Shown here: one piece after another, positions 11,248 through 50,539 of the stretch
Numbering within the stretch: position 1 is the stretch's first letter
How the letters are laid out: each line of letters begins with the position of its first letter
Made by a program: the position numbers and the translations under genes
NCBI GenBank assembly: GCA_934140005.1
Contig: CAKPBB010000001.1
Span: forward strand, 159,147-223,146
Source of the DNA: an uncultured Clostridia bacterium
GTDB lineage: Bacteria; Bacillota; Clostridia; TANB77; CAG-508
DNA length: 64,000 bases
Direction of reading: 5' to 3'
Notes under the pieces: generated by a model
What the model saw: only the letters and a program-made list of their open reading frames with translations
What the model was told of the DNA's origin: nothing
Database searches by the model: none

Positions 11248-11257
11248 GGTATTATTT

Positions 11258-11333
11258 TGGTGCATCACCGGGGAATCGAACCCCGAACCTCCAGATTAAG
11301 AGTCTGTTGCTCTGCCAATTGAGCTAGTGATGC
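11258..11333 (-). tRNA. tRNA-Lys (anticodon CUU)
   Basis: Reverse complement GCATCAC-TA-GCTC-AATTGGCA-GAGC-A-ACAGA-CTCTTAA-TCTGG-AGGTT-CGGGG-TTCGATT-CCCCG-GTGATGC-A-CCA gives a full cloverleaf. T-loop is TTCGATT. Confidence 0.85.
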
Positions 11334-22620: not shown

Positions 22621-22783
22621 TTAAGAAAATACTAATAATACTAAAATTAAAGGAACTGATATATCACAGTTGTTTTCTTCAAATAATAATATTGCAAGTA
22701 TAATCAATAAAATATCGTCTAAATATAAAGATGTACCATTAAAATACATAATTGGTACATCTTTGCTTATATTACTGAAATTT

Positions 22784-23185
22784 TCAAGTAGTTGGTTTAG
22801 TATCATTATTTTTTTCGCCTCCAGTTGAATTAAATAATTCTAAAAGATTAAGTAAATTTGCATATTTAATATATTCATCTAATTTTTCTTGTTTTTCTTT
22901 ACGTAAAAATGGTTTTAAAGAATTTAGCAGGTTATTTCTAGGTATGTTTTTTTGATTCATTTTTCCCATAATATCTTTGATTTTTAAAATTGTTTGAATG
23001 TCCAGATTAAAATCACTAGAACTGTTTGCATTAGAGGTGAATGAATTTTGATTTGCTTGGGTATTCTGATTATTTGAACTATTAGAATTGTCAGATGTTT
23101 TATTTATAATCTGGTTTATATCTATATTTTTATCTTTTAGTATTTGTGAAAATTGATTCATTACATTTGATAAATCATCATTCAT
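22784..23185 (-). CDS. Hypothetical protein (133 aa, N/S/Q-rich centre)
   Basis: ORF with RBS (GGAGGTG). Its N-terminus is paralogous to the adjacent 41-aa ORF. Confidence 0.5.
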   Translation of the reverse strand: MNDDLSNVMNQFSQILKDKNIDINQIINKTSDNSNSSNNQNTQANQNSFTSNANSSSDFNLDIQTILKIKDIMGKMNQKNIPRNNLLNSLKPFLRKEKQEKLDEYIKYANLLNLLELFNSTGGEKNNDTKPTT

Positions 23186-23217
23186 ATTACACCTCCATGT
23201 TAATAATTGATATTATT

Positions 23218-23343
23218 TTACTGCTTTTTACCAATATTACTATCATTAAGAATTTGTTGTGCTTTTTTTATATTTTTTTCTAATTCGTCTTTATCCATTT
23301 TTGAAATCATTTCTAAAAGCTGGTTAATATCTAAATTATTCAT
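23218..23343 (-). CDS. Small protein (41 aa), N-terminal paralogue of the preceding ORF
   Basis: MNNLDINQLLEMISKMDKDELEKNIKKAQQILNDSNIGKKQ with RBS AAGGAT. Similar to MNDDLSNVMNQFSQILKDKNIDINQIINK of ORF 22784..23185. Not in the supplied ORF table because it is under 60 aa. Confidence 0.3.
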   Translation of the reverse strand: MNNLDINQLLEMISKMDKDELEKNIKKAQQILNDSNIGKKQ

Positions 23344-23677: not shown

Positions 23678-26600
23678 ATGAAAAAAGCATTAAAGAAAAG
23701 TTTTGTAATGATGATTGTATTTATACTTACATTTGCAAATTATGGCTTTGCAATTAATGCTATTGCAACAGAAAGTGCGTCAGTGTTTGAAATGAGCATT
23801 TTCAAAAAAAGCAATATTGAATTTAAAGCATATTTTGATGGCGAAAATGAAAAAGAAAAGCTATCAGATGTAAATGATGAAGTAGTAATCAATGCAGAAC
23901 TTAACCCAAAAGTAGATGGAATATTGAAGGAAGGAAAATTGAAGCTAAACTTAGAAAATAGTGAAGAAGCAAACTTTGAAATAGTTTCAGTTACAAAGCA
24001 AGAAGATATATCAAAAGATTTAGAAGTTAAAGATATAAAACAAGAATTAACTGAAAACTTGAAGTCTTCAGAAGAGAATTTTAATAATATTGAAACTCAA
24101 AGTAAAAGTATGAATTCATTAAATGATGTTGAAAAACAAGCTGAAAGCATAGATTCATCAAGTGTTGATTTGAAAAAAGATACTTCTATAAATATTGCTA
24201 ATTCAACAGATAAAATAGTTGATATGACTGCAGATGAATCAAATACTTCAAATATGGCTTCAGATAATACAGTAGCGGATACATCTTCAAGTGAGAGTTC
24301 ATCAAATAGTGTATCAAATAATGTTAGCAATAATATAACAGATTTCAGCAAAGAAGATGAAGTAATTGATGAAGATAAAGTAATAGAAGAAGCATCAAAA
24401 GAAAAAGCAAATGAAAAAGAAAATGTATCATCAAATAGTGAAGTTTCTTTAACAGAAGAAAATGATATTTCAATAAGTAATGTAATAAGTAATACTAAAT
24501 TTAGAATAGTAATTAAATATAAACAAGGTGAAAAGATAAATATATCTGATTTGTATAAGAAATTAAATTTAACATTAGAAGGAACATTTGTAAATACAGA
24601 TTTAGAAGAAAGCCAAGAAAAAGAGAGTGAAACATTAAAATTAGGCTGGACATATAGTAAAGAAATAGAAGTGGCATCAGAATATAATAAAATATCACCA
24701 TTTACAGTAGGAAAAACAGTAGGAACAATAGTACAAAATGAGATATCTTTAAAAAGAGAAGTTACAGAAAAAAATTATTTACCAGTAAAAGAAACAAGTA
24801 TACAAGTTCAAGTTCCAACATTAAATGGCAAATATCCAACAGAGATAAGCGTAAATGCAAATAGATTGATGGCAACAAGAGGAGAAACATTTGGAGCAGT
24901 AACATTTACAAATGATAATTGGAGTTATAATGAGAAAAAACATACAATAGAAATAAAAGTACAGAATGAAGAGAATGGAACGGCAGTAAATAGTTACGGA
25001 GAAGATAATTTTGTAGTAGCATATAGATATGAAGACTATATAGATGCAGAGAATATAGAATTAGATAAAGAAGTAACAGTAAAAGTAGAAGAATATAGTG
25101 GTAAAGAAAATAGAGTACAAGAGAAAAAGATAGAAGAAAAACAAAATAAAGAGATAGATGCAGGAGAGCTAATAACATATACAGTAGGAACAACAGATGA
25201 AGCAGTAAGTAAAGGAAAAATAAATGCAAATTATTATTCAGAAACAGCATATGAGACAGAGATAAAAACGATAGTAAGTTTAAATATATTAACAAGTGAT
25301 ATGTTAGAAGCAATTAAAGTAAGAGGCACAAAAGAATCATATATAGATAAAAAAGGCGAGAGCTATGATGCAAGTGGAGATGTAAAATATAAAGGAGTAA
25401 ACTTTAATTATTCAGAAATAAAAGATATATTAAAAGCAGATGGAACAATAGATTTGTTAGATAAAGAAGGCAATATAATATATACATTAGATAAATATAA
25501 TACAAAATCAGATGAAAGTACAAAGATAGAATTATCAGAGTATACAGAAAATTTGCAAATAAGAATAAATAAAGTAAAATCAAATGGAACAATAAATATA
25601 GAGTTTGTAAAAGTAATAGGCAAGAGTAATTATAAAGCAGTAGAGTTTAATGATTTTAAGAGTATAAAAAGTACAGTAGAAACAAGTGTAAAATATGTAA
25701 AACAAGAAGGTACATTTACATTAAAGACAATGGATGTAGAAAAAGAGTTCACAGAAAGCTTTACAAGTGCAAAATTGTATATGAATAAAGAGTACTTAAG
25801 TACAGTAGAAGTAAATAAAAATGTACAATTAAAAATCGAGTTAAATAATAATAAAGAAACAAGTGATTTATATAAGAATCCATACTTTGAAATAGTATTT
25901 CCAAAATATGTAAAAGCAGTTGAGATTCAAGACATAAACTTAATGGATGAAAAAGGATTACAAATTAAAGATTTCCATACAGTAGAAGAAAATGGAACAA
26001 TCAAAATAAAAGTAGAATTAGAAGGAACACAAACAGAATTTGTAGGAGTAAATTTAACAAATGGAACAAATATAGTAATAAATGCAAATATAACAGTAGA
26101 TGATTATACACCAAAGAAACAAGATCAAGTAAAATTGTATTATTACAATGAAGCAGTAACAAATTATGTAATGCAAACAAAATGGAGTGTAAATAAGAAT
26201 ATGCCATCAGATATAATAAAAGTAACAAATGGCTTTGACTTGGCAGTATTCGAATATCAAGCTCCAACAGGATTAGTACCAGTAAATGAAATAAAGAATT
26301 ATGATGGAAAAGCCAATAATGTAAAGTCAGTAAAACAAGGAACAATAGAAAAACAAATAGAGATAAAACAAGAAACACAGATATCACAAATGAAATTAAC
26401 AGCATTAAATAATACAGGTAATGATTGTACAGATGTAGTATTACTAGGAAGAATCCCATTTAAAGGAAATAAAGATGTAGTAACAGGAGCAGACTTAGGA
26501 ACAACAGTAACAACAACATTAAAAGATAAAATAACAGCAGATGGAAGTAATACAGCAATGGCAACAATTTATTATTCAAGCAATCCAGAAGCAGATAAGA

Positions 26601-29600
26601 ACTTGTCAGATGAGAATAATGGATGGACACAAGAGATAACAGATATAAGTGAAATAAAATCATACTTAATAGTAGTAGATGGAACATTAGAAGCAGGAAA
26701 AGTATTAAATTATAGTTATGATTTTGAGATACCAAGTGAATTGCCATACGAAAGTGCAATATATGGATCATTTGGAGTATACTACAATAATAATTCAGAT
26801 GTAGCAGTAGTGTATGAAAGCAGCATAGCAGATAAAGTAGGATTAGTAACAGAAAAAGGACCAAAACTAGAAGCAAACCTAAGCGTAGATATAGGTGATG
26901 GAAATGATGTACTAGAAACAAGAAGATTAACATACACAGTAACAGTAAGCAATACAGGAAGTGTAGATGCAGAAAATGTAGTAGCAACAGTAGAAGCACC
27001 AGAAAATGGAATCTTTGTTATAAAAGGTGATGCTGAATATGCTTCAAGTATGGGCGATTATGGATTTATGCCATATTTAGAGGAAAATGTATCCGAAAGT
27101 GGAAAAGTGCAAATGAATTTACAATTTGCAACTATTAAAGCAGGTGAGAGCAAAGATGTTACATTCTATGTCAAATCGAATGAATTATTAAACATAGAAG
27201 AATATTGTCAAATGATGGGAACTCCATCAGGAAAAGATGAAAAAGGATACTATTATTCAGTAGTAAAAGATGATGGAGAAGATGATCAAAAAGATGTAAT
27301 TAATGATGAGAATAGAGATGAATATTTAGATGAAGATGGACTACCAAAGAAGGTTACAAAAGATGGCAAGGATTACTTTTTAAATAAAGAAAAAAATGAA
27401 TCAGGAGAATATACATTATTAATATATAGAGCAGAAGACGGTTCAGAAATATCTTTTACAGAAGGATATGAAATATTTAAGAAACAATATCATTTAGAGG
27501 AAGATAATCCAGATCAATCTGAAAATGATGAAGAAGAATATGAATATGAAAAAGTATATGTAGATAAAGTTCCGGATTCTTATATTGAAACAAAAGCAAA
27601 AATAACTTGTGAAAATTTAGCAACAGAATTTGAAACAAATACAATAAAAAACAAAGTAATTAAAGCAAATTTTGAATTAAGTACAAATTTAGATTATGAT
27701 GTAGCTTTGACAATTGGAGCACAAAATACTTTTGAAGCTACAATAACAAACTTATCTGATAAAACTTTGAAAAATGTTGTGGTTTATTTTAAAACTAGTC
27801 AATATATGAAACATATTTATTCAGAATCTAATATGGATGATACAGATATAGTTTCAAATGATGATACAGGAGTAATAACTTATAAAATAGGAAAATTTGA
27901 TTCAGATGACATTATAAAACTAAAAGCTATAGTTGAAGCTACTAATATACCTGTAGCAGATGAAAAATTTGAGAGTTATTTTGAAATTTCTGCACAAGGT
28001 GTAGAAAATGAAGTAGGAACTAAGATTTCACAGGAAATTGTAAAGCCTTTAATTACATCTAGATTAGTTTCAGTTTCTTCAAATGAATTAAAAGAAAATG
28101 ATACATTAACGGCAACTATCAAAGTAAAAAATGAAGGATTATTACCAAGTAGTGGAACAAAATTGCTATTTGATATACCAGAGATTATACAAGTTAAGAA
28201 AGTTACATATTTAAGCGGAGAAGATACCAAAAATTTATCAACAGGTAATGGTAATAAAAACGTAGCAATAAGTTTACCTGTTATAAATGCTGATGAAGAA
28301 CTTGATATAAATATTGAATTCTATGCAATAAATAGTAGTGGTACTGATACAACAGATGTAAAAATATCACCAATTGTTACGGTAGAAAATCAAGATAATA
28401 TTAAATTAGAAGATATTAAGTTTACTGTATTAAATGATAAATTAACACAAGATGAGGAAGATGAGTTAAAAAGAAGAGAACAAGAAGAAGCTGATAAAGA
28501 TAGAATTGATAAAGCTGAACAAGATATTATAGATAAAACACAAAATAACACTAATAAACCAGATAATAACCAAAACAATGATAATAACAATAATAGTAAT
28601 GATAATAATCAAGGCAATAATGAAGATAAATCAAACAACATTATAAACAATAAACCAAATGATACAAATCAAGATAGTAGTGATACAAAGCCATTAGCAA
28701 AATATGCAATATCAGGTATAGCTTGGCTAGATGAAAATAAAGATGGACAAAGAGATAGCAATGAAAAGTTACTAAATGGAATAAAGGTAAGTTTAATAGA
28801 TGTATCAACAAGTAAAGTAATACAAAATGTAGAAACAGATAGTAATGGAAAATATGTATTTAATAGTGTAGAAGTTGGTAAATATGTAGTTGCATTCTCA
28901 TATGATAATACAATATATGAACTAACAAGTTATAAAGCAAGTAGAGTAAGTGATGATAAAAACTCAGATGTTATAAAGAGCGAAACAAGTAAGATGGCAG
29001 TTACTTCACAAATAGAAGTAAAAGATAGAAACATTACAAACATTGATATTGGTTTAATTTCAAATAGCATATTTGATTTAAAAGTAAGTAAATACTTAGA
29101 TAAAGCAATAGTAACAACAAAGAAAGGTACAACAGAGTATGATGTAGATAATAAAGATATTGCTAAAGTAGAAATAAAATCAAAAGAAATGAAAAATTCA
29201 ACAGTAAAATTAGAATACAAAATTGTTATTGAAAATGTTGGAAATGTTGAAGGATATGCAAAACAAATTGTTGATTATTTAGAACAAGGATATGAATTTG
29301 ATGAGAAAGATAATTCACTTTGGTATTTAGGAAATGATGGATTACTTTATACAAATAACTTAGACAATGTAAGTTTAGCACCAGGAGAAAAGAGAGAGTT
29401 CAAATTAGTATTAAGTAAGAAACTAGATGAACCAAAAACAATAATAGCAAGTAATAAAATAGAATTAACAAGTAGTTTCTGTAAGGCAAACTTAACAGAA
29501 GGAAAAGATAATAATACAAGCGTACAAACAACGTTTATATCAGTAGCAACAGGTAGAACAATACAATATATAGCATTTATAATGTTTACAATAATAGCAA

Positions 29601-29671: not shown

Positions 29672-29674
29672 GAG

Positions 29675-32600
29675 GTGAAGATGATGAAAAAGATAAAACA
29701 AATAAATAAGAAAATTTTAATTATCATAATTGTTTTAATTAGTATAGTATTAATTGGTTTTATAGGCTTTAAGTCATCTTCAGCCTATGCTACTAATAAT
29801 GGACAAGAAGAATTAGAAAATACTAATGAACAATTGAATAAAATAGCAGAAGAAGAATTAGAAGATATGTTGTCAAATTCAGAATTTGCAACAGAAGGAA
29901 AGACCATTGAAGAAATAAAAGAAGAAATTAATAGCAATTTGGGAGATATTCCATGGAGCTATGAACAAAAGAAATTAATTAATGAGGAGGTTCTTGCTAG
30001 CAATCCAGATTATTTTTGTATGCAGCATGGTTATAGTTATTGGTATGATAATCTTGATTTGTCACAATATGGTGTAGGAAATATAGGTATTTCTGGAAGA
30101 ATTAAAAATATTTTAACTTATAAATTTAAAGGTTCAGTTCATTTATTTCCACAGACTTTTTCTGGTAGTGCTAATGATGGCTGGGGAGGCTATACTTCAA
30201 GTGGTAAAGTTGAACCTAAAACAGGTACTATTGCTAAGGCTGGATCAGATACATGGGATCATCATGGATTTGCAGGTCCAATTTTACCAGTCAAAGTTGC
30301 ATTTTCAAGTTTTTACTATTATAAAGTAGATTTTGGATGGATAAGCCAAAGTGGTGGTAAAACTATAGTAAGAAGAAGCTCAAATTCACCGATTTATAAT
30401 CAACTAAGAGTTTATGATGATGGTGGAATAGCATTTGCAATGGCTACATATAAACAAACAGCTGAAGAAAGAAAAAGAACAGGACATGCAGATGATCCAT
30501 TACAGATTGCACTTTGGGTTCAAATGAATCAGCTAGGTAGAGTAAATTCAGATAGTCATAGAACAAATAAACTAGCAGATGTTATGGCAAAATATGATGA
30601 TTATTATAAAAAAGCAAGTGACATTGAAAATAATGGAGCAAATATTGGTGTTACAGTAGATGATCACGTGGGAACAACACTTGTGCTTAATAATACGACT
30701 TATAAAGTAGGACCATTTACAATGAGTCATTATTTAAGAGCTAAAGATGTTGAAGTAAGTGATCCAGTAAGAGGATATAAAAATTTACAAGAAGCATTTG
30801 ATGCGTCAAGTACCCAAAGGGTATTTGGAAATCTTCTTTCAAATGTTAAAGGTTCAATTATAAAAGCAACAGCATATTTTGACAATGGAACAACAATTAA
30901 TTTTCCAGTTCCAGACCCAGATGCAGAATTTTATATATATGTTCCAAGAGACAAAGTTGGAGATGCAAATGAGTTAGTAGAAATTGGCTTTGAATATCAA
31001 TATGTACATGCTAATGGTACTGGCACATATTATGATGGTTTAAGATATATGACTTTTTGGAAAGAAGCAAATACAAAAGATGGTTGCAAAACATACTTTA
31101 ATACATGTTTAAAACTTTTAAAATGGCCATATACAAGTTCAAAACCAGGACCTCAACATTGTCAACATTTTAGGACACAACAAATTACAATACCAACTCC
31201 TTGGGGACCAATTACTTTTACAATACTAGTTCCAGCTGGCTCACATAATGACGCAATATTCCTTTGCAAACATGGTTTTGGATGGACTTCTAATGATAAG
31301 TGTAAAGCGTTTAATTGGAAGCTGTTCTTTAGTGTTCCAGATACTCTGCAGGATGCAATGGAGGCATCAGCAAAATTAAGAGGTAAGCAATATAATACAC
31401 ATAATTATGATAATCTAAAAATGGAAGTTCACGTACCACTTATTACAGACATAAAAGTTGATAAAATAGTTGTAAAAGTTCATCACAATGATAGTGAGGG
31501 AAGATATACTTATGGTGCAGGAATAAGTGGAATAGGTAGTATATTTAGCGGAATATTCTCAAGCTCAATTGGAGATAATACTTCAAGATTTGAAAGAAGT
31601 ATGGAAGAAAAATATGATGATACAGTAAAAGTTGAAAGAGGAGATACAGTTATATTTAGAATAGACATCATAAATAATTCTCCAAAATATGACACAAGAA
31701 TTAAAATAAAAGATACTTTACCAAATGACATAGAAGGTACTTTTAAATTACCAGCAGATTTAAATGGTGGCTGGTATATTACGATACCAAAACAAGATAA
31801 AGTAACATATTATGTTGAAGTAATTCCAAGTGCACAAACAGGCAAATACACAAATACAGTTGAAATAACAACAAGAAATACTGGAACATTAGAACATATG
31901 CAGTATGTAGAGTGGTATGGACATACCAAAGGAAATATTGTAAACACAAATGATAATAGAGTAACTGATTTAAGAGAAAAAGATTCAGATACATATGAAA
32001 TTAAACAATATAAAGTAAATATTGATAAGCATATTGTAAAAGTTGAACATACAACAAATGGAGAAGTTACATATGATGCTCTAGCTGACAATGATGAAAA
32101 CTTAAAATCAAGTCAATTAGCTATAGCAAGAGTAAAAATGGGTAGAGCTGTAAATCTTTTAGATCCAGTATATGTAGAATATGGTGATAGAGTAACTTAT
32201 CAAATTGATGTATATAATACTACACCATTAGATTATGCTGTTACAAATAGAAGTGGTGAGCCATATTGGAAGCCAGATAAAGTATATGTAGACTTATTAG
32301 ATGAATTACCAAATCATAGTGACATCAAAATCAATATAACAAATGATGGTAATGTATTAAGTCAAAGCGGTTTACCAATAGTGTTGCCAGTTGGTAATAT
32401 ATTAAGTATTTCAAACTTATGTGTACCGGCAGGAAGTGTAACAACAATTACAGTTTCATTTGTAGTTGAGGATGTTCAAGCTGGAAAATTGTGTCCAAAC
32501 GTTGTAGAAATGGTTGGAGAAGTTTATAACATAAACCATTGGAAAAACTTACAGAAGTATGACAGACCTGTTTATAATACAGAAAAATCAGAAGCTTATA

Positions 32601-37312: not shown

Positions 37313-37325
37313 GTTGACTAGAAAA

Positions 37326-37358
37326 GCAGAGAAAATAAAAATTCTCTGCTTTTGTATT
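37326..37358 (+). terminator. Rho-independent terminator after giant gene 2
   Basis: AGCAGAGAA / TTCTCTGCT stem followed by TTTGTATTT. Confidence 0.55.
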
Positions 37359-37615
37359 TGGAAAATATAATAGGAATATATTTATTGAAAAAAACTGACA
37401 AAAACGGCAAAAAAGTTCAATGAAAGCTTGCAAAAATAATTATGTAAAATAAAAAGTTTGCAAAAAGCTAGGGAAATAGTACTTTGAAAGAAGTACTATT
37501 TTTTTACAAAAAATTTCAAAATTTGACAAAATTTCCTATTAGACAACAAAATTTTAAAAAAGCTGTTTTTTCAAGGAAAAAATATCAAAAAAAATTGAAA
37601 AAAAGTCAAAAAAAG

Positions 37616-37645
37616 GTTGAAAAAGTTTACATAACGGTATATAAT
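37616..37645 (+). promoter_or_regulatory. SigA-type promoter for giant gene 3 (TTGAAA - 17 bp - TATAAT)
   Basis: TTGAAA at 37617-37622 and TATAAT at 37640-37645. Lies ~220 nt upstream of ATG 37867. Confidence 0.5.
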
Positions 37646-37866
37646 AAAAATGTATATTTATAAAAGGTAAAAGTGTTTTTTATAGGAGATTGTGTAATTA
37701 AAATTTTATATTTATAGATTTAGAATTTTAAATATATAATGTCCGTAAATAAATTTAAGAAAATACCTATAAAAGTATTGATATATAGGTATTTTATAGG
37801 TTGACTACTATTATAAATATAGTAAAATATATATCAAGTAATAATTTAAGTAAATGGAGGTAAGTT

Positions 37867-40800: not shown

Positions 40801-43326
40801 GATTTATCAAATATTAAATCATACTTAATTGTTCCAGAAACAACAGATTATATAATGAATGAAGCAGAAACATTAAGATTTACTTATGAATATGAAATAC
40901 CAGGAAATCTAGAACATAATACAGATATTTATGGTACATTCTTAGCTTATTATACAAATAATACTGAAATTGCTACTGTAAAAGAAACATCAACAGCAGA
41001 TAAAGTAGGATTAACAACAGGAGAAGGACCACAAGTAGACATATCTTTAAAATCAGATATTGAAAAGATAAAAGAGTTTGAAGAATTAAAGCTAACAACT
41101 TCAGTAACAAATACAGGAAAATCAGCAGCAAAAGATATAGTTGTTAAATTACCAATTCCAAATTATACAGAGTATGTTTCAGCATTAGCTAATAAAGAAA
41201 ATGTAACAACAAGTTTAGAAGATAATATGTCAGTATTTAAAATAGATAGTTTAGCTGTAAATGAAACGGTAAATCTAGAAACAACTATTAAAGTACAGGA
41301 TACTCCAGAAGAACAAAAAAATATAGAAGCTGTTGCTACTATAACAGCAAAAGATTTACAAAAAGAATTATCAACAAATACAGTATCTGTTGAATTAAAA
41401 CAAGCAGAAATGGCTATTGAAGTAATGACAGAAGAAGATAATACAGATGGAGGTAAAGTTATTTACAAAGAAGGAGAAGAGTATTTCTTTAATGCATATG
41501 TAGATAATTTAAAATCAGAAGAATTAACAAATGCAATTGTAAAACTTAAATTACCAGAAGAATTTAGTTTTGTAGAAGCATATATGCTTGGATATGAAGA
41601 AGATGGACTTACATCTAAGAAGATAGAAAATGCTACATATAATGAAAGCACAAGAGAAGTTATTTGGAAAACAGACAGTATAAGAGCTGATGGAGGAGAA
41701 CAATTTAACTTGACAATAAAAGTTAATGACTTACCATCAGGAACAACACAAAAAGATGTAACAATGAAATTTGAAACATCAGCAGATAATACAGAAACTT
41801 ATACTTCAAACGAAGTATTGAGTACAATTGCAAAACCAAGCTTAACAGTTTCTCAAAAGACTTTAACAACAAATACATATGTAAAAGAAGGAGAAACAAT
41901 TGAGTATGTGTTTGAAGTAAAAAATGAAGGTATTGTTGCAGCAGAAAAACTTACATTAAATGATAAAATACCAGATGGTTTAATTGTAAAGAAAATTGAC
42001 TATATTGCAAATGGAGTAGAATCTTCAAAAACAGTTTCTGAAAAAGATTCTGTAGAAATAAATACAGTTATTATGCCAGGTGAAGAATTAATTGTAAATG
42101 TAAAGGCACTTGCAGTTAGCCTAAATGGTATGCAAGAAAAAACTGTAACAAATGCAGCAACTGTATCAGCTAAAAATGTTGAAACAGTCAAAACAAATAC
42201 AATTACACACATAGTTGAAGCAACAGATAAATCTGAATTATATGATACAGCTGGAGAAACAACAAATACAGCTACATCTCAAATTCATTCATCAAATAGC
42301 AATCTTGTTAAAACTTATAAAATTACAGGTATTGCTTGGCTAGATGAAAATGGAAATGGTAAGAGAGATGAAGAAGAACAAAAAATGAGTGGTATAACAG
42401 CTCGTTTAGTAAATTCAGATACAGGAACTATTACAAAAACAACAGTTACAGATAGTAGAGGAGAATATACATTCTCAGGTATTGAAAATGGAAATTATTT
42501 AGTACTTTTTGATTATGACACAGTAAAATATACAGTAACAACATATAGACAGGCTGGAGTGGAAGCAAATGTTAATTCAGATGCTATTACTACAAAAATA
42601 GAACAAGATGGAAAACAAAGAAATGGTGCTGTAACAGATGTAATTACAATTCAAGATTTAAGTGTTTCAAACATAGATATAGGTTTTGTTTTAGCAGATA
42701 CATTTGATTTGAAACTAGACAAATCAGTAACAAAAATAACAGCACAAAACAAAGTTGGAACAAATAAAGCAGAATTTAATAATTCAAAACTTGCAAAAAT
42801 GGATGTAGCAGGAAAATATATATCTAGTACAGTAATCTATGTTGAATATAACATTTCAGTTTCAAATACTGGTGATGTAGCAGGATATGCTAAAAAGATA
42901 GTAGATTATATACCAGAAGGAATGACATTTAATTCAAGCTTGAATTCAGATTGGTATACAGGTACAGATGGTAACTTATATACATCAAGTTTAGCAGAAG
43001 TGGAATTAAAACCAGGTGAAACAAGAAACTTAAAATTAGTATTAACAAAACAAATGACTGAAGAAAATACAGGAATTGTAAACAACAATGCAGAAATATA
43101 TGAAGACTTCAATATATATGGAATTTCAGATAAGAATTCAACTCCAGGAAATAAAGTTCAAAATGAAAATGATATGAGCTCAGCAGATGCAATGTTAACA
43201 ATTAAAACAGGTGAAAGCCTAATTTATGTATCAGTAATAATAACAAGTGCAATTTTAGGAGCGATAGTAATATTTATAGCATATAACAAAATTGTAATTT
43301 CAAAAAGAAAGAGAGGTGGTGTTTAA
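37867..43326 (+). CDS. Giant secreted cell-surface protein 3 (1819 aa), paralogue of protein 1
   Basis: Signal peptide MHSKMFKRVLAGILVFTLTFANPALV. Blocks collinear with protein 1, e.g. LTNGCNIVINANIQV vs LTNGTNIVINANITV. GIAWLDENGNGKRDEEEQ is SdrD-B-like. C-terminus TIKTGE + TM + SKRKRGGV. Confidence 0.8.
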   Translation: MHSKMFKRVLAGILVFTLTFANPALVTKSFATSIFDMVNNQSGTGNKNIEFNAGFDAENAESFSAISDVNNEDLAINLRLNVKDKGYLKNGKVQILEGTEGAGLNFELRKEDSKSENSSNENTDIANSNIENSNTENAIIEESNNQNTVSEPIENSFETVNTQTEEMLTENMGKFQNLDANTSKEAEAKIDQNSSNNNVSNENVTENTTVSNETTSTKNENTEKNEKVEVKSEMVESIEDNIISLKQINAGSDVLISVPIEYKNEEYVNLKKLSDTSKIIFTGIYVDGKGNENEVSKEVDLTLFWKDERNVKITTDVTKYIPYKTSNGNGIILQTLVTLDNTTSRKSLPVKKTELSVSVPTINNVKPNNVTITANSTAGTNGKSNENVVFTSDNWSYNQEDNTLNIHIQNESQVVKIDNTANDVLKDAEKVVKEEERYYSVSGKDEYSITYSFENIEAIENLKLNSNVSGKMETFTGESSNAQIVEVQENYEFNLDGQKGEIVSLETNNETKNVSKAYTYLNYNNKENYEIKFNSKNIVNISYKDIVEGIKLEDKDIYYVAKDGNKYSTTDVKYKTISFQKENINNILGEEGRIRITDASGNEISTINKETATDENGNIVIDLTDKNLSKLSIQTSKPITDGNLIINVERAMKKSEFSKEQYKNFSTLIFENVIKAKYSYVEAETEIATNTIQTNLRDTITKANLVIDRDSLSTIAMNNDVEMRVELNNNLEESDVYGNSIFEIEMPAYIQRMDITNTNIVYGEGLEIQNVELFERDGRVYIRITLNGQQEYLNSGVLTNGCNIVINANIQVNLFTPAMEQQINLTYTNSEATNYENNQEYGSTAKAISYSAPTGLLTVNTTSNYNEVGSMITSVRQGKKEDTIEIYAPAKTAKMEVIVMNNNKNTISDLTILGRIPFKGVKDIETGEDLGTTLDTKMVSKMVADSNNRGNFKIYYSENPEATKDLENTENAWKQDVEDLSNIKSYLIVPETTDYIMNEAETLRFTYEYEIPGNLEHNTDIYGTFLAYYTNNTEIATVKETSTADKVGLTTGEGPQVDISLKSDIEKIKEFEELKLTTSVTNTGKSAAKDIVVKLPIPNYTEYVSALANKENVTTSLEDNMSVFKIDSLAVNETVNLETTIKVQDTPEEQKNIEAVATITAKDLQKELSTNTVSVELKQAEMAIEVMTEEDNTDGGKVIYKEGEEYFFNAYVDNLKSEELTNAIVKLKLPEEFSFVEAYMLGYEEDGLTSKKIENATYNESTREVIWKTDSIRADGGEQFNLTIKVNDLPSGTTQKDVTMKFETSADNTETYTSNEVLSTIAKPSLTVSQKTLTTNTYVKEGETIEYVFEVKNEGIVAAEKLTLNDKIPDGLIVKKIDYIANGVESSKTVSEKDSVEINTVIMPGEELIVNVKALAVSLNGMQEKTVTNAATVSAKNVETVKTNTITHIVEATDKSELYDTAGETTNTATSQIHSSNSNLVKTYKITGIAWLDENGNGKRDEEEQKMSGITARLVNSDTGTITKTTVTDSRGEYTFSGIENGNYLVLFDYDTVKYTVTTYRQAGVEANVNSDAITTKIEQDGKQRNGAVTDVITIQDLSVSNIDIGFVLADTFDLKLDKSVTKITAQNKVGTNKAEFNNSKLAKMDVAGKYISSTVIYVEYNISVSNTGDVAGYAKKIVDYIPEGMTFNSSLNSDWYTGTDGNLYTSSLAEVELKPGETRNLKLVLTKQMTEENTGIVNNNAEIYEDFNIYGISDKNSTPGNKVQNENDMSSADAMLTIKTGESLIYVSVIITSAILGAIVIFIAYNKIVISKRKRGGV

Positions 43327-43327
43327 T

Positions 43328-46300
43328 ATGAAGAACTTAAAAAATAAAACAATATTATATGTAGCATTAGTATTTTTAATAGTATTAGGCACCATATTTG
43401 GTTTAGCAACTTATGTAAGTGCAGAAATAGATGTTTCACAATCACAATTAGAATCCAAGGGGCAAGGTAGTCCTGCCCCAGGATATGTAACTTTGAAAGA
43501 TTTAAGAAGTAGATATGATATTTTGTGTTCTAAACATGGTGAACATTTACCAAGTTATAATAATACATTACTTATAACAGAAAGAGGAATGTTATCAGAA
43601 GGATATTTAAAACAAACTGATATTGGCAAGAGAGATTTTTACCAGGTAAGTGCAAGTGAAACAGAAAATTCACCATTTAAAAAAGGAACATATGAAAATC
43701 AAACTTATGGTTATTATAAGAAAAAGGCAACTTATGTAGCAAAACCAATGGAAGCATATGTATTATCAGAAATGGTAAGAGAAAAAATGGCAACAGCGAC
43801 AGATACAAATGTACAAATTGCTTGGTGGAACACAGAAGCTGGTATGAAAGGTGTTTTAACAGCAGCACCAGAAGCTTTAACTTTAGAAGCTAGAGACTTT
43901 GAAGCCTATATAGAAAAAATTGCTGTTTCAACGAACCCAAGTACATTTACATTACAAGATTATGAATTTCAAGTAAATGGTGTAACTTATGCAGGTCAAA
44001 TTGAAGCACCAGTATTAAAATATGAACCATCTTACAATAAAGATGCAAATCAAGATGGAAAAGAAGATAGATATGACAATGTTACAGTTTCATGGACAGG
44101 GGAAAAATACAGAATAGGTCCATTCTCTGTAAATTATGTAGAAAGCAAATCAAAACATGGTGACAGAGATGAAGTTATGTTTGCTGGTATCACAAATGCA
44201 AAAATCTATACAGACTTAGGTGAAGTACCAGAAGATAAATGGTCATTTGTATGGCTAGAAGGTCAAAGAGATGCAAATGATACACAAAAATATCCACATG
44301 CAAACGAAGTATTTTATATTGAAATGGATTTTATAGAAAATGCTAAATATTTCAAAAATTTACATTTTGATTTCAAATACATGAATGCTGGTGGAAAATA
44401 TGATGAATTAGAAGGAAAATATTTTAAGGCAAAATGGCAAGCAAAAAGCAAAGCACTATGGTGTTTATTAGGAAATCCATTCACATCTTGTACACATGGA
44501 TATATAACACCTCACATCATGGGTTGGGCTTACTGGGTAGAATTAACAAATTTAAAAGAATTTGATTCACAACTTTTAGCTTATGGTATTAAAGGTGCTA
44601 GATGGTATAAGACAGCAGAATTAGATTTCAATGGTGAAACAGAAATCGTAGAAAATCATAAAGCAACAATTCAAATAAAGAAAGTTGTAATTGATCAAGA
44701 AGGTAATGAATTAACATCATTAGATGATTCTATATTTACATTTAAACTTTACATAAATAATGTACTTTATGATACACTAAGATTAAAAGCAAATGAAACA
44801 GTTACCAAAACAATTAAATGGGGAGCTAACGAATCAAATCCATCATATAGAATTGAAGAAGTAAATGTTCCAAGCGGATACAATGTAGTAAATATTGAGA
44901 ACTCATCTGGTGTCTTATCAGATGGTTGGTTCCAAAATATTAGCGTAAAAGCAATAAACAGAGTAGATAGACATTCAGGATATATAAACATTCAAAAGAA
45001 AGTATTAGAAGTTGCTGAAAATGATGAAACATATAAATTTAATATTTATATAGATAATGTTCTTAATAGACAAGTTTCAATAACTATTCCAGCAGGACAA
45101 AAAGAGAATGGTATAACAGTAGGACCTTTTGAATGGAATGGTAATGATGCTCCAGTATATAGAGTTGAAGAAACTGAAATTCCAGAAAATGTTACTCAAT
45201 TCAATATGATAAATGAAAAAGGAAAATTGGTTGAAGGAACAGCTGGAACACCAGTAATTGTTACAGCAATAAATGATAACTCAGAAACAAAACAACATAA
45301 AGGTTATATAGAAATCACTAAAAAGATAACAGAAGTTTCTTTAGAAGATGAAACATATAAATTTGATGTATATATAAATGGAGAAAAATATCAAACAGTA
45401 GAAGTATTAGTTTCAGCAGGACAAACAACATCAAATCCAGTAGTAATTGGACCAATAACATGGAAAGGAACAAGAGCACCAAGTTATGAAGTAAGAGAAA
45501 TTGAGATTCCAGAAAATGTTAAACAGTTTAATATGGTTAATGCATCAGGAACTATTTTAGATGATGCAACTGGACAAAAAGTAATTGTAACAGCAATCAA
45601 CGATACTAGTACAGAGACGAAAGAACATAAAGGAAAATTAGTAATTACTAAAAAAGTTGATGGAAATGCATCAGTAAACAAAAAATTCAAATTTAAAATA
45701 ACAATAGGAAATGATGTATACTATGCAGAAATATCAAAAGATATTAGCTGGACACAAACAGTTAAATGGAAAGATGGAGAAAGTGCTCCAACATATAAAG
45801 TAGAAGAAATTGAAATCCCAGAAGGATATGAACAAGTAAGCATTACAAATGCTGAAGGAACTATAACTGAAGATCAAGATGTATATGTAGAAGCAATAAA
45901 CAAAGGTGATGATACAGAATATTCTGGAACAATCCGTGTAACTAAGAAAGTTGAAAATTCAACAGATACAAATACAAAATTCAAATTTAAAATAACAATT
46001 GGTGATACAACTTATACAAAGGAATTAGCAAATGGCGAAAGTTGGACAGAAAATGTTAAATGGATTGGTAAAGATAATGCACCAACATATAAAGTAGAAG
46101 AAGTTGAAGTTCCAAATGGATATACTTTAATAGGAATTGAGAATAGTACAGGAACATTACAAGAAAATAAAACAGTCGTTGTAAAAGCAACAAACAGAAA
46201 CAATGATGACAGAAACAGACAGGCACAAATTACAGTACGTAAAGAAGTTCAAATAGACGATAAAGTTAGAAATGATGTTGTAGAAGGAAGCTTCGAATTT

Positions 46301-49300
46301 GAAGTTACAATAGCAGGAACATTCGAAATGAATGGTGAAAGCATTGTAAATGGAAGCAAAACAATTAAACAAAGTATAAGAGCAGGAGAAAGTTTCTCAA
46401 CACCAACAATTACATGGAAAGGTGATAATGCTCCAACTTATAAAGTAACAGAAACAAAAATGCCAGATGGATGGAAACTTGTTGATATAACAAATGCATC
46501 AGGAGTTCTAGAGGATGGTGTAAATATTGAAGCTGTTTGTACAAACGAGTTCAAAATCACAGTAGAATATGAACTTACAATGCAAATGGGTGGTATTGTA
46601 TGGCATGATAAAGCATTAAATCCAGATGCTAAAAACACACCAGATTCAGTTCCAAACGGTAAATATGATGCAGGTTCAGAAGAAGGAATTGAAAAAGCAC
46701 AAGTAACAATTAAAAGATATTTGTGTGATGACAATGGAAATGTAATTTCTAGTACAGGAAATGCAAAAGCATGGGATGCAGATGGAAATGAAATTTCTTG
46801 GCCAGTATATACAGATGTTGATGGAACTTGGAATGTAGCAAAAGTAGAAATTACAGTTACAAAAGCAGGTGAATCAGGCAGAGTAAGATATGGTGTAGAA
46901 TTTGGATATGATGGTCAAACATATGAACCAACACAATTTTTAGTAACAGGAAATGGAAATGCAAGTGCATATAAAAATGCATCAAGAATAGATAGAGGAA
47001 ACTTCTTCTATGATTCAATGGCAATAGACAATGAAGCAGAGAGAGCACAATTTAATAGTAAATTTACAAATATTACAGGTGATGAAGCAATAACATCAGA
47101 TGGTAAAACAACAGGATATAGTACAAATGCTTTAGGAGCTAGAACAGCAACATTAAATTATGTTTCAACAGATTCATTAAACACAATGGGTACAACTAAA
47201 AAGGAATCTACATTAATTACAACAAAAGATGACCATAGTATTATAAATGATTTCTTAATGAAAGCTGAAACAACAACTGGTGGCTTAACATTCCCATTTG
47301 ATACAGCAATTCATTTAGAGAGTATTGATAAAAAGATCAATGAATTAGGAGCAACACATATTTATCATTATTCAGCAACTTATCCTTATTTACTAAGTAT
47401 AAACTTAGGTTTAGTTGAAAGAGAAGAAGCTGAGCTTGCAGCTACTAAAGATGTATATTCAGCAGCAGTTGTAATTGATCAAAAAATGTTAACATATAAA
47501 TATAATCAAGCAGTTGATTTTGAAAATGTAAAATATCAAGATTATTTGAATTTACAAGTAGAAATAACAGATGCTGATATAGAATATGAATTAGACTTAT
47601 ATAAAACAGATTATTATTATAGAGCAAAAATCTATGAAGAAAATGCAGAAGTTGCAGGAGCATTAAAGAAATTCTATAAATCTTTAGGATTTACAGCAGA
47701 TAATGCATTGGATACAGAAATGAATCTTGATGTATATGTAACTTATAAAGTTAGTGTATATAATGATTCACCAACATATTATGCATCAGTAAATGAACTT
47801 GTAGATTACTATGATGAAGATTATGAACTAGTAAATGTAGAAAAGAAGAGATATCTACAAGAGGCAAATGGTGTTGCTGTAAACCAAGTAACAACAATTG
47901 CAGAAACTCCATATTATAAAGTTGCAAAACAACAAGTAAATGGAAATAATGTAAGTTGGGAAACAACAAACGATAATCAAAACCCAGTAGTTTGGGAAAA
48001 TGCAGGAACTGTACATGGTTCAGATGGTATAACATATAATAAGATTAAAACAAGCTCAATAAGGGATGAAATATTAGCAACAGGTGAAAGAATTGACTTA
48101 TATTTAACATTTAGAGTAAAGACAGACGAAACATCAGCAGATGGAGTTCTAAATTGTGTAAGATTAGGAAGAAAAGCAAATATTGCAGAAATTTCAAATT
48201 ACTCAACTTATAACTCAAATAATAGAGCAGATGTAGCTGGTAAAGTAGATAAAGATTCAGCACCAAATAATATTAACATTACAGAATTTAACGAAAAATC
48301 TTGGTATGAAGATGATACTGATTCAGCACCAGCAATTACATTAACACTATATGATACATCAAGAGAAGTAAATGGTATTGCTTGGGAAGATAAAGAAGAT
48401 GTTCAAATTGAAAATGGATATGGTCAAACAGTTGGAAATGGAGTTTACGATCCAGGTGAAGAATTAATTGGTAACTTGACTACAGAATTGTGGGAAAAGG
48501 TTAGAGTAAAGAAAATTGACGATAATGGAAATGAAGTTCATGATGCAAATGGTGATATAGTATATACAGAATATGATTTCTTATGGCCAGAAGATTATGA
48601 AATTCAATCTGGAAAAACCTTAAAGGAATTAACAGGATTTGACTCAACAATTAAAACTGGCGTAGATGGTGCAAATAAAGGCAGATATAATTTTACAGGA
48701 GTTCCAACGGGTAACTATGTTGTAAGATTTGTATATGGAGATAGTGATGAAACTTCAGATCCAGCAAATTATGATGGTGATGGAATCCCAGCAGTATATA
48801 ATGGTCAAGACTTCAAGACTACAGCTTATGAAGTTGGATTTAGCAATATATCAGATACAAATTCAGATGGATATGTAGATAATGAATGGCATGATTTAGA
48901 AAATGAAGAACTTGCAAATACAAGAGTTTCAGATGCTAGAGATAGTGAAATAAGAAGACTTGAAATAACAGCAAAATCTAGAATTCTAACAAATTCAAAT
49001 ACAACAATTCTAAATTCTGCAAATAGCAGAAATGCAGATCATACAAAACTATATGAAGAATATTACATGACAGCTGATACAGCAAAAATCAACTTAAATA
49101 TTGAAAATATGATAAGTTTGAAGAAACAAACTGTAAATGTAACAAATCCATCAACTGGTATAATGGAAGAAATTGCGGCAGGTGAAGAAAAGCAAGTTGG
49201 AGGAATTACATTAAACTATACAAAAGGTAAAGTAAACCTTGCAAATGGTGGAAATACATCACTAGATAGATTAGACTTTACTTATGTGGTAAACAATATT

Positions 49301-50539
49301 GATATTGGCTTGGAAGAAAGAGCAAGCACAGAGATTAAGTTAGATAAAGAAATTGAAAATATTACTTTAACAAATAATACAGGATCTGTTATATTAAAAG
49401 CTGATTATGATATTACTTATACACCAAAATATAATGCAAGAACAGGCAGAACAGATGTTAAAACAGATGTTAAACTAAATGAATCTACTTCAATGGGAAC
49501 TGATTATTTACAAGCATTAAATAAAAATGAAGAAGCTGGATTACAAAACTTTAGATATATTTTCTATGACAATTCAATAGCACAATCATTAACTTTAAAT
49601 GTAACTTATAGATTTACAGTATTGAATTTAGGAGAAACAGATAGAATTGGATTACTTGCAAATGAAAGATTTGATGTGCCAAGTGAAATACTTGCAGAAG
49701 TTGCAAAACTTTCAGAATCAGATTATTCTTACAATACAAGAACAAAGACATTTACAAAAACAGCAAATGCAGATGGCAATGTATATGCAGATACTTATGG
49801 CAAGTATTTAGGAAGCATTTACTATGAAGGTTCTTATGCACAAGCTAACTTAGATAATATAGTAACTACAAAGATTGATACTTTAATAGACTATGTTGAT
49901 AATAACGCAGTATTTAAAGCAGAAGAAAATACAGCATTAAATAATAGCTGGAGAGTTGTAACAATTGAAGAATTATCAAATGAAGATATAATAGATAAAA
50001 ATATTATTCAAGATTATGATGGAGTTCAAAACATTGTAGACTCAAAAGGTGTTATGTATGAGACATCAGAAAGAAATAATATAATTCTTAGTGTAGAAAA
50101 TAATGATGCAAACGCAACTGAAATGTCAAATAAAGACTTTACTATCAGATTAGTTCCTTATGGTGCTACTTTGAATAATAGTGATTTGACTTATGGATAT
50201 ACAACATATATGAATATGAATATGACAAGATCTATAGATGCAGAAATAAATGACTCAGACGCATCATTTGATAATATCGCAGAAATTGTTAAATTAGAAA
50301 ATACAGCAGGTAGAAGAGATGTAACAACAATTGCAGGTAATGCAAATCCAAAACTTGGTGAGTTTGCAGTATCTTTAACAGAAAGAGACTCAAGTGCAAC
50401 AGAGTTAATTACATTTACACCACCTACTGGTATGAATGCAAGAACAATCTTAACACTTCAAATCGCATTAGCAACTGTAGCTGGATTAGCAATAGTTGCA
50501 ATAGGAATTGTAGTTATTAAGAAAAAAATTCTAAAATAA
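43328..50539 (+). CDS. Giant secreted adhesin 4 (~2403 aa), paralogue of protein 2. TED-like N-terminus, six tandem CnaB-like repeats, TPPTG + TM + basic tail.
   Basis: Likely start ATG 43328 after GAGGTGG. Cys71 in DILCSKHGEHL and Gln167 in TNVQIAWWN. Repeats G(Y/K)I(E/V)ITKK...(W/T)KG..AP.Y.VEE.EIPE...VTAIND. C-terminus ...FTPPTGMNAR...LAIVAIGIVVIKKKILK collinear with protein 2. Confidence 0.8.
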   Translation: MKNLKNKTILYVALVFLIVLGTIFGLATYVSAEIDVSQSQLESKGQGSPAPGYVTLKDLRSRYDILCSKHGEHLPSYNNTLLITERGMLSEGYLKQTDIGKRDFYQVSASETENSPFKKGTYENQTYGYYKKKATYVAKPMEAYVLSEMVREKMATATDTNVQIAWWNTEAGMKGVLTAAPEALTLEARDFEAYIEKIAVSTNPSTFTLQDYEFQVNGVTYAGQIEAPVLKYEPSYNKDANQDGKEDRYDNVTVSWTGEKYRIGPFSVNYVESKSKHGDRDEVMFAGITNAKIYTDLGEVPEDKWSFVWLEGQRDANDTQKYPHANEVFYIEMDFIENAKYFKNLHFDFKYMNAGGKYDELEGKYFKAKWQAKSKALWCLLGNPFTSCTHGYITPHIMGWAYWVELTNLKEFDSQLLAYGIKGARWYKTAELDFNGETEIVENHKATIQIKKVVIDQEGNELTSLDDSIFTFKLYINNVLYDTLRLKANETVTKTIKWGANESNPSYRIEEVNVPSGYNVVNIENSSGVLSDGWFQNISVKAINRVDRHSGYINIQKKVLEVAENDETYKFNIYIDNVLNRQVSITIPAGQKENGITVGPFEWNGNDAPVYRVEETEIPENVTQFNMINEKGKLVEGTAGTPVIVTAINDNSETKQHKGYIEITKKITEVSLEDETYKFDVYINGEKYQTVEVLVSAGQTTSNPVVIGPITWKGTRAPSYEVREIEIPENVKQFNMVNASGTILDDATGQKVIVTAINDTSTETKEHKGKLVITKKVDGNASVNKKFKFKITIGNDVYYAEISKDISWTQTVKWKDGESAPTYKVEEIEIPEGYEQVSITNAEGTITEDQDVYVEAINKGDDTEYSGTIRVTKKVENSTDTNTKFKFKITIGDTTYTKELANGESWTENVKWIGKDNAPTYKVEEVEVPNGYTLIGIENSTGTLQENKTVVVKATNRNNDDRNRQAQITVRKEVQIDDKVRNDVVEGSFEFEVTIAGTFEMNGESIVNGSKTIKQSIRAGESFSTPTITWKGDNAPTYKVTETKMPDGWKLVDITNASGVLEDGVNIEAVCTNEFKITVEYELTMQMGGIVWHDKALNPDAKNTPDSVPNGKYDAGSEEGIEKAQVTIKRYLCDDNGNVISSTGNAKAWDADGNEISWPVYTDVDGTWNVAKVEITVTKAGESGRVRYGVEFGYDGQTYEPTQFLVTGNGNASAYKNASRIDRGNFFYDSMAIDNEAERAQFNSKFTNITGDEAITSDGKTTGYSTNALGARTATLNYVSTDSLNTMGTTKKESTLITTKDDHSIINDFLMKAETTTGGLTFPFDTAIHLESIDKKINELGATHIYHYSATYPYLLSINLGLVEREEAELAATKDVYSAAVVIDQKMLTYKYNQAVDFENVKYQDYLNLQVEITDADIEYELDLYKTDYYYRAKIYEENAEVAGALKKFYKSLGFTADNALDTEMNLDVYVTYKVSVYNDSPTYYASVNELVDYYDEDYELVNVEKKRYLQEANGVAVNQVTTIAETPYYKVAKQQVNGNNVSWETTNDNQNPVVWENAGTVHGSDGITYNKIKTSSIRDEILATGERIDLYLTFRVKTDETSADGVLNCVRLGRKANIAEISNYSTYNSNNRADVAGKVDKDSAPNNINITEFNEKSWYEDDTDSAPAITLTLYDTSREVNGIAWEDKEDVQIENGYGQTVGNGVYDPGEELIGNLTTELWEKVRVKKIDDNGNEVHDANGDIVYTEYDFLWPEDYEIQSGKTLKELTGFDSTIKTGVDGANKGRYNFTGVPTGNYVVRFVYGDSDETSDPANYDGDGIPAVYNGQDFKTTAYEVGFSNISDTNSDGYVDNEWHDLENEELANTRVSDARDSEIRRLEITAKSRILTNSNTTILNSANSRNADHTKLYEEYYMTADTAKINLNIENMISLKKQTVNVTNPSTGIMEEIAAGEEKQVGGITLNYTKGKVNLANGGNTSLDRLDFTYVVNNIDIGLEERASTEIKLDKEIENITLTNNTGSVILKADYDITYTPKYNARTGRTDVKTDVKLNESTSMGTDYLQALNKNEEAGLQNFRYIFYDNSIAQSLTLNVTYRFTVLNLGETDRIGLLANERFDVPSEILAEVAKLSESDYSYNTRTKTFTKTANADGNVYADTYGKYLGSIYYEGSYAQANLDNIVTTKIDTLIDYVDNNAVFKAEENTALNNSWRVVTIEELSNEDIIDKNIIQDYDGVQNIVDSKGVMYETSERNNIILSVENNDANATEMSNKDFTIRLVPYGATLNNSDLTYGYTTYMNMNMTRSIDAEINDSDASFDNIAEIVKLENTAGRRDVTTIAGNANPKLGEFAVSLTERDSSATELITFTPPTGMNARTILTLQIALATVAGLAIVAIGIVVIKKKILK

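Follow-up and report, generated by a model that had tools for sequence, protein, structure and literature searches.

The 64-kb window analysed here (64,000 nucleotides of contig CAKPBB010000001.1 from an uncultured Clostridia bacterium) carries at 23678-50539, on its plus strand, four consecutive giant genes, which are named P1 to P4 together with their products. We consider it fairly probable that they form two paralogous and separately transcribed operons, P1-P2 and P3-P4, each encoding a pair of Sec-exported, cross-linked giant fibre proteins of which the second (P2 or P4) would be an adhesin of the TIE type. The initial annotation of this DNA had placed four giant genes here, as the four long plus-strand open reading frames (ORFs) bear out, and had given their products 2009, 2545, 1819 and 2407 aa. 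These lengths are true of the longest ORFs, which begin at 23642 and the last of which ends at 50539, but starts picked by ribosome-binding sites (RBS) and public gene calls give 1997, 2543, 1819 and 2403 aa. P1 (23678..29671) starts at ATG 23678 with the RBS GGAAAGGG in front of it, P2 (29681..37312) at ATG 29681 (2543 aa as counted here, 2542 aa in the public gene call), P3 (37867..43326) at ATG 37867 and P4 (43328..50539) at ATG 43328. The secreted products are all acidic (pI 4.6-4.9), have masses of 202-289 kDa and start with a signal peptide whose basic n-region, hydrophobic core and A-x-A-type cleavage site were read by eye from the sequence. About 70% of each protein carries no annotated domain.

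The two genes of each pair lie very close to each other. P1 and P2 are 9 nt apart, the RBS of P2 (AGGAGG) overlapping the stop codon of P1, and P3 and P4 are separated by 1 nt without overlap, the RBS of P4 (GAGGTGG) being within the final P3 codons. The 3-nt gap between P1 and P2 and the overlap between P3 and P4 that had been described were artefacts of the longest ORFs. The tight spacing holds after correction of the starts, and the translational coupling proposed from it is an interpretation of that spacing. A scan of one genome per species gave 56 related loci, which are designated by L numbers where one has to be named. A P2/P4-type gene follows 59 of the 62 P1/P3-type genes that have enough downstream sequence, and in these pairs the first ATG most often comes 1, 3 or 4 nt after the stop, with a mode of 1 nt. 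With 1-9 nt from stop to start and the RBS of the second gene within the coding sequence of the first, the members of a pair would be made together in about equal amounts. As coupled synthesis favours equal amounts, the paired proteins probably cooperate at the cell surface. The pairing, together with the paralogy of P1 with P3 and of P2 with P4, agrees with the duplicated two-gene module that had been proposed. The RBS of P4 falls in the codons for the conserved KRKGGV of the P3 C-terminus (43305-43326), and the tail-coding sequence of P3 may for this reason be under a double constraint, at the protein and at the RNA level. One exception to the pairing rule is a lone 3961-aa P2-like protein (P0044) of locus L006 (10001-21886), which has an APPTG signal, is encoded next to lemA and has no upstream P1/P3-type partner.

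The N-terminal heads of P2 and P4 are candidate thioester domains (TEDs). The defining motifs of TEDs are [YFL]C-Phi-zeta around the Cys, TQXX-Phi-W on helix alpha2 and Phi-Q-zeta-Phi-Phi (PMC6194298). On the plus strand, the head of P4 encodes Cys67 (43526-43528), Gln163 in QIAWW (43814-43816) and Gln415 (44570-44572), and the head of P2 encodes Cys113 in YFCMQ (30017-30019), Gln275 in LQIALW (30503-30505) and Gln557 in TLQDAME (31349-31351). The first motif is found as YFCMQ in P2 and as Phi-Phi-C-[CS] in the P4 family, its Cys closing model strand 40-42. The second is found as LQIALW in P2 and VQIAWW in P4 and is predicted to be helical (model residues 136-142), the leading Thr not being conserved. 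The third would have its counterpart around the invariant Gln415 of P4 and the likewise invariant Gln of TLQDAME in P2. A profile of the P4 head retrieved only 248 representatives from 1.84 billion proteins. Counted over the aligned rows that cover each column, the Cys is kept in 170 of 174, the helix Gln of Q-x-x-Phi-W in 190 of 198 (its final Trp in 191/198) and the hairpin Gln in 129 of 131, while the set of one Cys and two Gln is complete in all 103 rows that span the three positions. The motifs of the P4 family read Phi-Phi-C-[CS]-x-x-G, Q-x-A-W-W and [SA]-Q-x-L-A; those of P2 and its orthologues read YFC-x-[QE], PLQ-x-A-[ILV]-W and TLQDAME.

An AlphaFold model of P4 residues 30-450 (pLDDT 82.8, pTM 0.77) consists, in this order, of six strands (40-112), three helices (115-173, with QIAWW on the second), a beta-sandwich (183-354) and a hairpin (371-414), and the invariant Gln is at the turn of this long hairpin (371-388/392-414), after the sandwich. 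This is the order of elements described for class II TEDs, which have a six-stranded barrel along with three helices forming a bundle, an inserted beta-sandwich and a long hairpin supplying the Gln (PMC6194298). In such a divergent class-II-like head the reactive bond would join Cys67 to Gln415 in P4 and Cys113 to Gln557 in P2, and the head would bind a ligand covalently in the gut, be it on the host, a food particle or another microbe. It is very improbable that the head is a stalk-borne enzyme without a thioester, such as a cysteine protease, a transglutaminase or similar. An invariant Cys near the N-terminus and the lack of a match to TED models would be compatible with an enzyme, and one distant family member has a papain-family match elsewhere in its sequence. 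Nevertheless a Cys-His enzyme is disfavoured because the list of invariant residues of the head contains no His; neither His nor Asp is invariant beside the Cys, which goes with two invariant Gln in TED-type motifs, and no protease fold was matched.

Behind the head, P2 is composed of DUF11/CLIPPER and SdrD_B domains, a C-terminal half in common with P4 and a sorting signal. In P4 the head (~30-445) is followed by six CnaB-like repeats (445-1075; DNA 44660-46552), the conserved C-terminal half and a sorting signal. The two proteins had been described as collinear paralogues, which applies to the heads and the C-terminal halves. The heads are related at the profile level only (hhalign probability 96.6%, E 6e-10), and the 27% identity between P2 and P4 is confined to the C-terminal ~1250-1380 columns (E 2e-68). 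The middles are unlike, with DUF11-type domains in P2 and the six repeats in P4; of the CnaB-type repeats that had been assigned to both proteins, only those of P4 were recovered. The ~60 aa up to TPPTG, first reported as near-identical, are the best-conserved stretch of P2 and P4, at an identity estimated by eye at ~55%.

The P4 repeats are ~100 aa each and have three invariant residues (K8, E67 and N100). When single repeats were scanned against Pfam two of them matched DUF7601 at 5e-8 and three matched SpaA weakly; the whole P4 had no Pfam domain above threshold, and a profile of the six repeats had no significant match among PDB sequences. DUF7601 is a CnaB-like predicted isopeptide domain with Lys/Glu/Asn, and together with SdrD_B and CLIPPER it is listed among the CnaB- or CnaA-like predicted isopeptide domains (PMC12617251). 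The P4 stalk thus has the Lys/Glu(Asp)/Asn triad of isopeptide domains, the bonds being predicted from the sequence. The stalk of P2 and P4 would then be a long array of isopeptide-type Ig-like domains (CnaB-like DUF7601, CLIPPER and SdrD_B) ending in a [TS]PPTG sorting signal. The P4 family comprises 101 clusters, and its heads diverge faster than its stalks. Close homologues of P2 are few; all of them come from human gut metagenomes and have the same four-gene order and flanks.

The collinear paralogy that had been noticed between P1 and P3 is confirmed by 31% identity across 1318 columns (E 2e-143), rising to 36% in the C-terminal 337 columns. P1 contains, besides the signal peptide and the sorting signal, acidic Ser/Asn-rich linkers, a conserved unannotated core, DUF11-like domains and SdrD_B. 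P3 starts with a small conserved domain bearing an invariant Lys (K89), followed by an acidic/Asn-rich linker and an unannotated core (~240-1060), and its C-terminal part consists of four CLIPPER/DUF11 stretches, SdrD_B, a terminal cross-link-type domain and the sorting signal. The SdrD_B and DUF11 content put forward earlier was recovered with hidden Markov models (HMMs): Pfam SdrD_B matched P1 and P3 at 2e-15 and P2 at 9e-10, and DUF11/CLIPPER (4.6e-13) was above threshold in P2 and P3 and below it in P1. NCBIfam contributed the DUF11-type repeat only. A profile of full-length P3-family proteins matched staphylococcal SdrD (8e-19) and UafA (5e-10) in the PDB, with no further match in its first ~1340 positions. 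Homologues of P3 form at least 310 clusters, with ~50% identity over 87% of the length. P1 and P3 would be the ~200-kDa stalk-type partners, with CLIPPER and SdrD_B domains and a [VI]-x-T-G signal of their own.

All four proteins end in a short motif followed by a transmembrane segment and a basic tail, namely SVATG in P1 (29540-29668), TPPTG in P2 (37145-37309), TIKTG in P3 (43198-43323) and TPPTG in P4 (50417-50536), all on the plus strand and with coordinates that cover motif, segment and tail together. The combination of signal peptide and sorting signal claimed for the four proteins can indeed be read from their sequences, and the N-terminal signal peptide and the hydrophobic segment and basic tail after the motif are kept across the families. 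TPPTG or SPPTG occurs in 42 of 61 C-termini of the P4 type and 20 of 34 of the P2 type; in the P3 and P1 types the motif is [VI][KSR]TG in most cases. Relaxed (S/P)PXTG and NVQTG signals, of which these motifs are reminiscent, occur in the SrtB substrates of C. difficile (PMC4155245). In the reading that we favour, both members of a pair are probably cleaved at TG, and a sortase whose gene lies elsewhere in the genome would attach them to the wall.

Several results weigh against the favoured reading of the heads and of the anchoring. The TED HMMs (Pfam PF08341 and NCBIfam TQXA) matched neither the whole proteins nor the isolated heads at lenient thresholds. The profile of the P4 head found no TED among PDB sequences, its sole match being an unrelated protein of 104 aa (E 0.04), and a Foldseek search of the P4 head against the PDB gave no significant match (6fwv at E 0.02, probability 0.33). 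The model of the P2 head, built from a 5-sequence alignment, reached a pLDDT of only 35.6 and is unusable. Moreover, Cys and Gln are 348 aa apart in P4 and 444 aa apart in P2, roughly double the spacing in known class II TEDs. With regard to anchoring, the motifs of P1-P4 are not LPXTG and the NCBIfam model of the LPXTG anchor did not match them. A sortase domain is absent from every ORF of the 64-kb window, as the initial annotation had stated, and a crude search found no sortase-like ORF, class C included, in the 10-kb flanks of the 56 related loci.

A transitive search, in which 13 family heads and 16 distant members were scanned for the TED Pfam domain, found none. The flank search for sortases, which found no SrtA/SrtB-like ORF in the flanks of 67 loci, is a weak test made with approximate S. 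aureus SrtA/SrtB queries and a TLxTC scan; the TLxTC matches in the locus flanks were antisense ORFs within the giant genes. The TED-like N-terminus first proposed is backed by the Cys/Gln motifs and the class II order of the model, and by neither a TED HMM nor a significant fold match. The head is best taken, short of proof, as a divergent class-II-like TED with a putative Cys-Gln contact.

The same observations bear on two other explanations of the pairs. In the first, sortase builds a two-component fibre, with P2 or P4 as the tip, its PPTG Thr being joined to a Lys of P1 or P3, and with the partner fixed to the wall by [VI]xTG; the outcome would be a ~4200-residue heterodimer or a short pilus. 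The near-obligatory pairing (59/62) with coupled translation would fit this, and so would the two class-specific TG motifs kept across the family; in sortase-built pili, tip and base pilins are handled differently. The N-terminal domain of P1 and P3 with its invariant Lys (K89 of P3), held apart via a flexible linker, is also in favour, as is the occurrence of TED proteins, Cpa among them, as pilus tips (PMC6194298). We regard this fibre as rather unlikely, since neither in the window nor at the 56 related loci does a class C or other sortase-like ORF stand beside the genes and since the subunits are 5-10 times the size of pilins. Pilus sortases are normally encoded within the pilus operon. 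In addition, neither a YPKN pilin motif nor an E-box came to light, although no motif search was made for them.

The second explanation takes the four products as uncleaved envelope proteins, tethered in the membrane by the C-terminal helix, that would form a conserved coat or a layer for cell-cell cohesion and would not be ligand-specific adhesins, the Cys and Gln of the head being structural. It would account for a conservation of P3-type proteins that is unusual for adhesins (~50% identity over ~1500 aa across many species), for the fixed chromosomal place beside cell-shape and division genes and for the strongly conserved regulatory region described below, as well as for the lack of a sortase in the window and flanks and of an LPXTG HMM match. 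However, a TG or PPTG kept right before the helix is difficult to account for unless an enzyme recognises it, the domains are of the kinds found in wall-anchored fibrillar adhesins, and the heads diverge faster than the stalks, as expected of ligand-binding tips. Such a coat appears unlikely to us.

The separate transcription of the two operons is supported by the spacer between P2 and P3, for which a terminator and a consensus SigA promoter had been proposed; both are present and have counterparts in relatives. A hairpin with a U-run resembling an intrinsic terminator lies directly 3' of the P2 stop (37322..37360, plus strand; 12-bp stem, -17.3 kcal/mol, z -5.25). It was missed by a simple scan, and equivalents that differ in sequence occur in four other two-module loci, L004, L005, L009 and L011. 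Upstream of P3 there is a distal sigma-A-type promoter-like site, TTGAAA-17-TATAAT (37617..37645, plus strand), with 11 of 12 matches, and about 45 of 58 P3-type genes of relatives have TTGA[AG]A-17-TATAAT 215-280 nt before their start. A close relative has an AAA_14/DUF4143 ATPase gene inserted in this spacer (L002, 17755-18996; L003, 11385-12626), and P3-P4 must therefore be transcribed independently there. The second operon ends in another terminator-like hairpin, after P4 (50574..50612, plus strand), one having been found against 0.0 expected from shuffles.

Between the distal promoter-like site and P3, on the plus strand, are two leader boxes, A (TGTAATnAAAATTTTATATTT, 37693-37713) and B (TCCGTAAA, 37742-37749). 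They are followed by a proximal promoter-like site, TTGACT-16-TAAAAT (37801-37828), which holds an ACTAC/GTAGT inverted repeat and reads TTGACTAC...GTAGTAAAAT. In a 22-species alignment both boxes and the proximal site are made of invariant or nearly invariant columns, and the window has one copy of the proximal pattern where chance would give 0. The whole stretch in front of P3 (37617-37866, with equivalents in L004-L053), including the spacer of the distal site, is kept across species although the P3 proteins are only 47-74% identical. No Rfam family matched the P3 leader, the only match in the window being a tRNA elsewhere, and no riboswitch was found. From its sequence, this region is a candidate operator or leader of a regulator.

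All 56 related loci are in metagenome-assembled genomes labelled uncultured Clostridia, Clostridium, Lachnospiraceae or Candidatus Scatovivens, and among the hosts are human, mouse, rabbit, chicken, sheep and deer. Scatovivens is a member of GTDB order TANB77, family CAG-508 (PMC13106387); NCBI taxonomy places it in Clostridiaceae incertae sedis. In the window the module is flanked by mreB-mreC-mreD-PBP-minC on one side, where minC (22006-22620) closes the mreBCD-PBP-minC cluster, and by spoIIE on the other. Many species have mreC-mreD-PBP-minC, a small minus-strand gene, a single P3-P4 pair and spoIIE, and others, the species of the window included, have P1-P2 in addition. A few species have further pairs elsewhere. 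Wherever a related locus covers minC or spoIIE, P3-P4 takes the place between these two genes, at P3 identities down to 28-50%, and the orthologues diverge in step with the flanking genes. As its position is constant in all related loci, P3-P4 at the minC/spoIIE site is an ancestral fixture of the lineage, and P1-P2 is an additional copy of old date, restricted to a subset of species.

This history bears on the proposal that the locus was inserted into a core neighbourhood where minD and minE would normally follow minC. That minC is without a following minD/minE, and that an integrase gene and a tRNA gene lie ~12 kb upstream, could point to a recent adhesin island that displaced them. We find such an island hardly credible, since P3-P4 keeps its position in every related locus with minC or spoIIE, the base composition (AT-rich, 23-32% G+C over the window) is like that of the flanks, plasmid searches gave no match and orthologue divergence is in step with the flanking genes. 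In none of the related loci that include minC is it followed by minD/minE, and only P1-P2 has been added, anciently. The locus is a conserved core locus of the clade, yet not the ordinary one that had been named as refuting the initial claim. A conjugation adhesin or a mobile origin was also considered and was dropped after neither the P4 head nor P3 matched anything in plasmid searches.

Three small ORFs of 61, 133 and 41 aa on the minus strand (22621..23343) are divergent from the module and are called in all orthologous loci. The gene of 133 aa adjoins the module in more than 25 loci, among them two non-syntenic copies (L045 and L058), and none of the three ORFs has a Pfam or NCBIfam match. 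On the other side, spoIIE is intact in the window (805 aa, 50768-53185) and consists of two ORFs in L008 (9678-12092), L009 (22205-24488), L010, L017 and L049, which may reflect sporulation decay in some species, or assembly errors. A role in a spore appendage, which the spoIIE neighbour might bring to mind, was rejected, the conserved promoters being sigma-A-like and the sorting signals of the vegetative type.

The closest named systems are the TIE proteins with a class II TED, for example Bacillus anthracis BaTIE and Enterococcus faecium EfmTIE86 (PMC6194298; PMC4450167). P2 and P4 share with them a head with the [YFL]C motif, the Q-x-x-Phi-W helix motif and a putative C-terminal strand Gln, the predicted order of barrel, three helices, inserted beta-sandwich and Gln hairpin, and a stalk of CnaB/CnaA-type isopeptide domains between a signal peptide and a C-terminal sorting signal. 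Unlike the TIE proteins, P2 and P4 have a head of ~415-500 aa that is missed by TED HMMs and has a doubled Cys-Gln spacing; they are 4-5 times larger, end in [TS]PPTG instead of LPXTG and are encoded directly after a giant partner gene. The SrtB substrates of Clostridioides difficile (PMC4155245) are likewise clostridial surface proteins with a non-LPXTG motif in which TG is kept, a hydrophobic segment and a basic tail, but here one class has an invariant Pro third (PPTG) and the other [VI]-[KSR]-T-G, no cognate enzyme gene is nearby and the proteins are far larger.

The isopeptide-type stalk domains of P1-P3 are also those of CLIPPER/SdrD_B fibrillar adhesins (PMC12617251) and of staphylococcal Sdr proteins, although P1-P4 have no Pfam match to the A region and no Ser-Asp repeat, in contrast to Sdr/MSCRAMM proteins. 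The initial view that the four proteins are closer to fibrillar adhesins than to pilins is supported by these resemblances. With TED-tipped pili such as Streptococcus pyogenes Cpa/FctA the locus has in common a putative TED-type gene beside a stalk-type gene, with sorting signals on both; it differs in that its operons encode no pilus sortase, a pilin motif is not recognised, the subunits have masses of 200-290 kDa and a fixed 1:1 gene pair stands in for tip, shaft and base genes. The giant adhesin of Mobiluncus mulieris (PMC10619420) is a very large Gram-positive protein with cross-linked Ig-like domains and a thioester, which is only predicted here. It is, however, a single protein of 7651 aa with 51 uniform repeats, whereas the domains here are heterogeneous, the genes are paired and the lineage differs at the phylum level.

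Elsewhere in the window, the region 9556-11333 holds a 563-aa integrase-family gene and, immediately beside it, a tRNA gene (11261-11333, minus strand), and a second integrase gene is at 1228-2103. The integrases and the tRNA may mark an integrated element upstream of capsule-type genes, which encode CpsB (11782-12486) and a Wzz/tyrosine-kinase fusion (12540-14459). The window also encodes a 1233-aa leucine-rich-repeat protein with a C-terminal dockerin (57609-61310), and a cohesin gene is present in the relative L006 (3042-3896); together they hint at cohesin-dockerin surface display in this lineage.

In each pair, one partner probably has a covalent-binding thioester head that goes undetected in current domain databases, and surveys of covalent adhesins built on current TED models probably undercount these proteins. 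Moreover, the strict pairing rule is unexplained by existing models of fibrillar adhesins, and two non-LPXTG sorting motifs await a processing enzyme. A reading that joins a third, so far unrecognised structural class of thioester domain, whose sandwich insert would be enlarged and which would have ~250 representatives among 1.8 billion proteins, to a covalent two-protein fibre is doubtful as a whole. In it the PPTG signal may be transferred onto the partner and the [VI]xTG of the partner onto the wall, and the leader boxes may control expression. If true, a sortase-built heterodimeric adhesin of ~470 kDa would define an uncultured gut clostridial order.

Clostridia of the TANB77/CAG-508 type are common in human and animal guts. 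To our knowledge they have no cultured and studied members, and their attachment in this niche is uncharacterised. The locus is characteristic of this uncultured gut clostridial lineage, its coding and regulatory sequences being kept across many species from human, mouse, rabbit, chicken and ruminant hosts. As it takes up ~27 kb at a fixed position and both its coding and its regulatory sequences are conserved, it probably has a central place in how these bacteria live.

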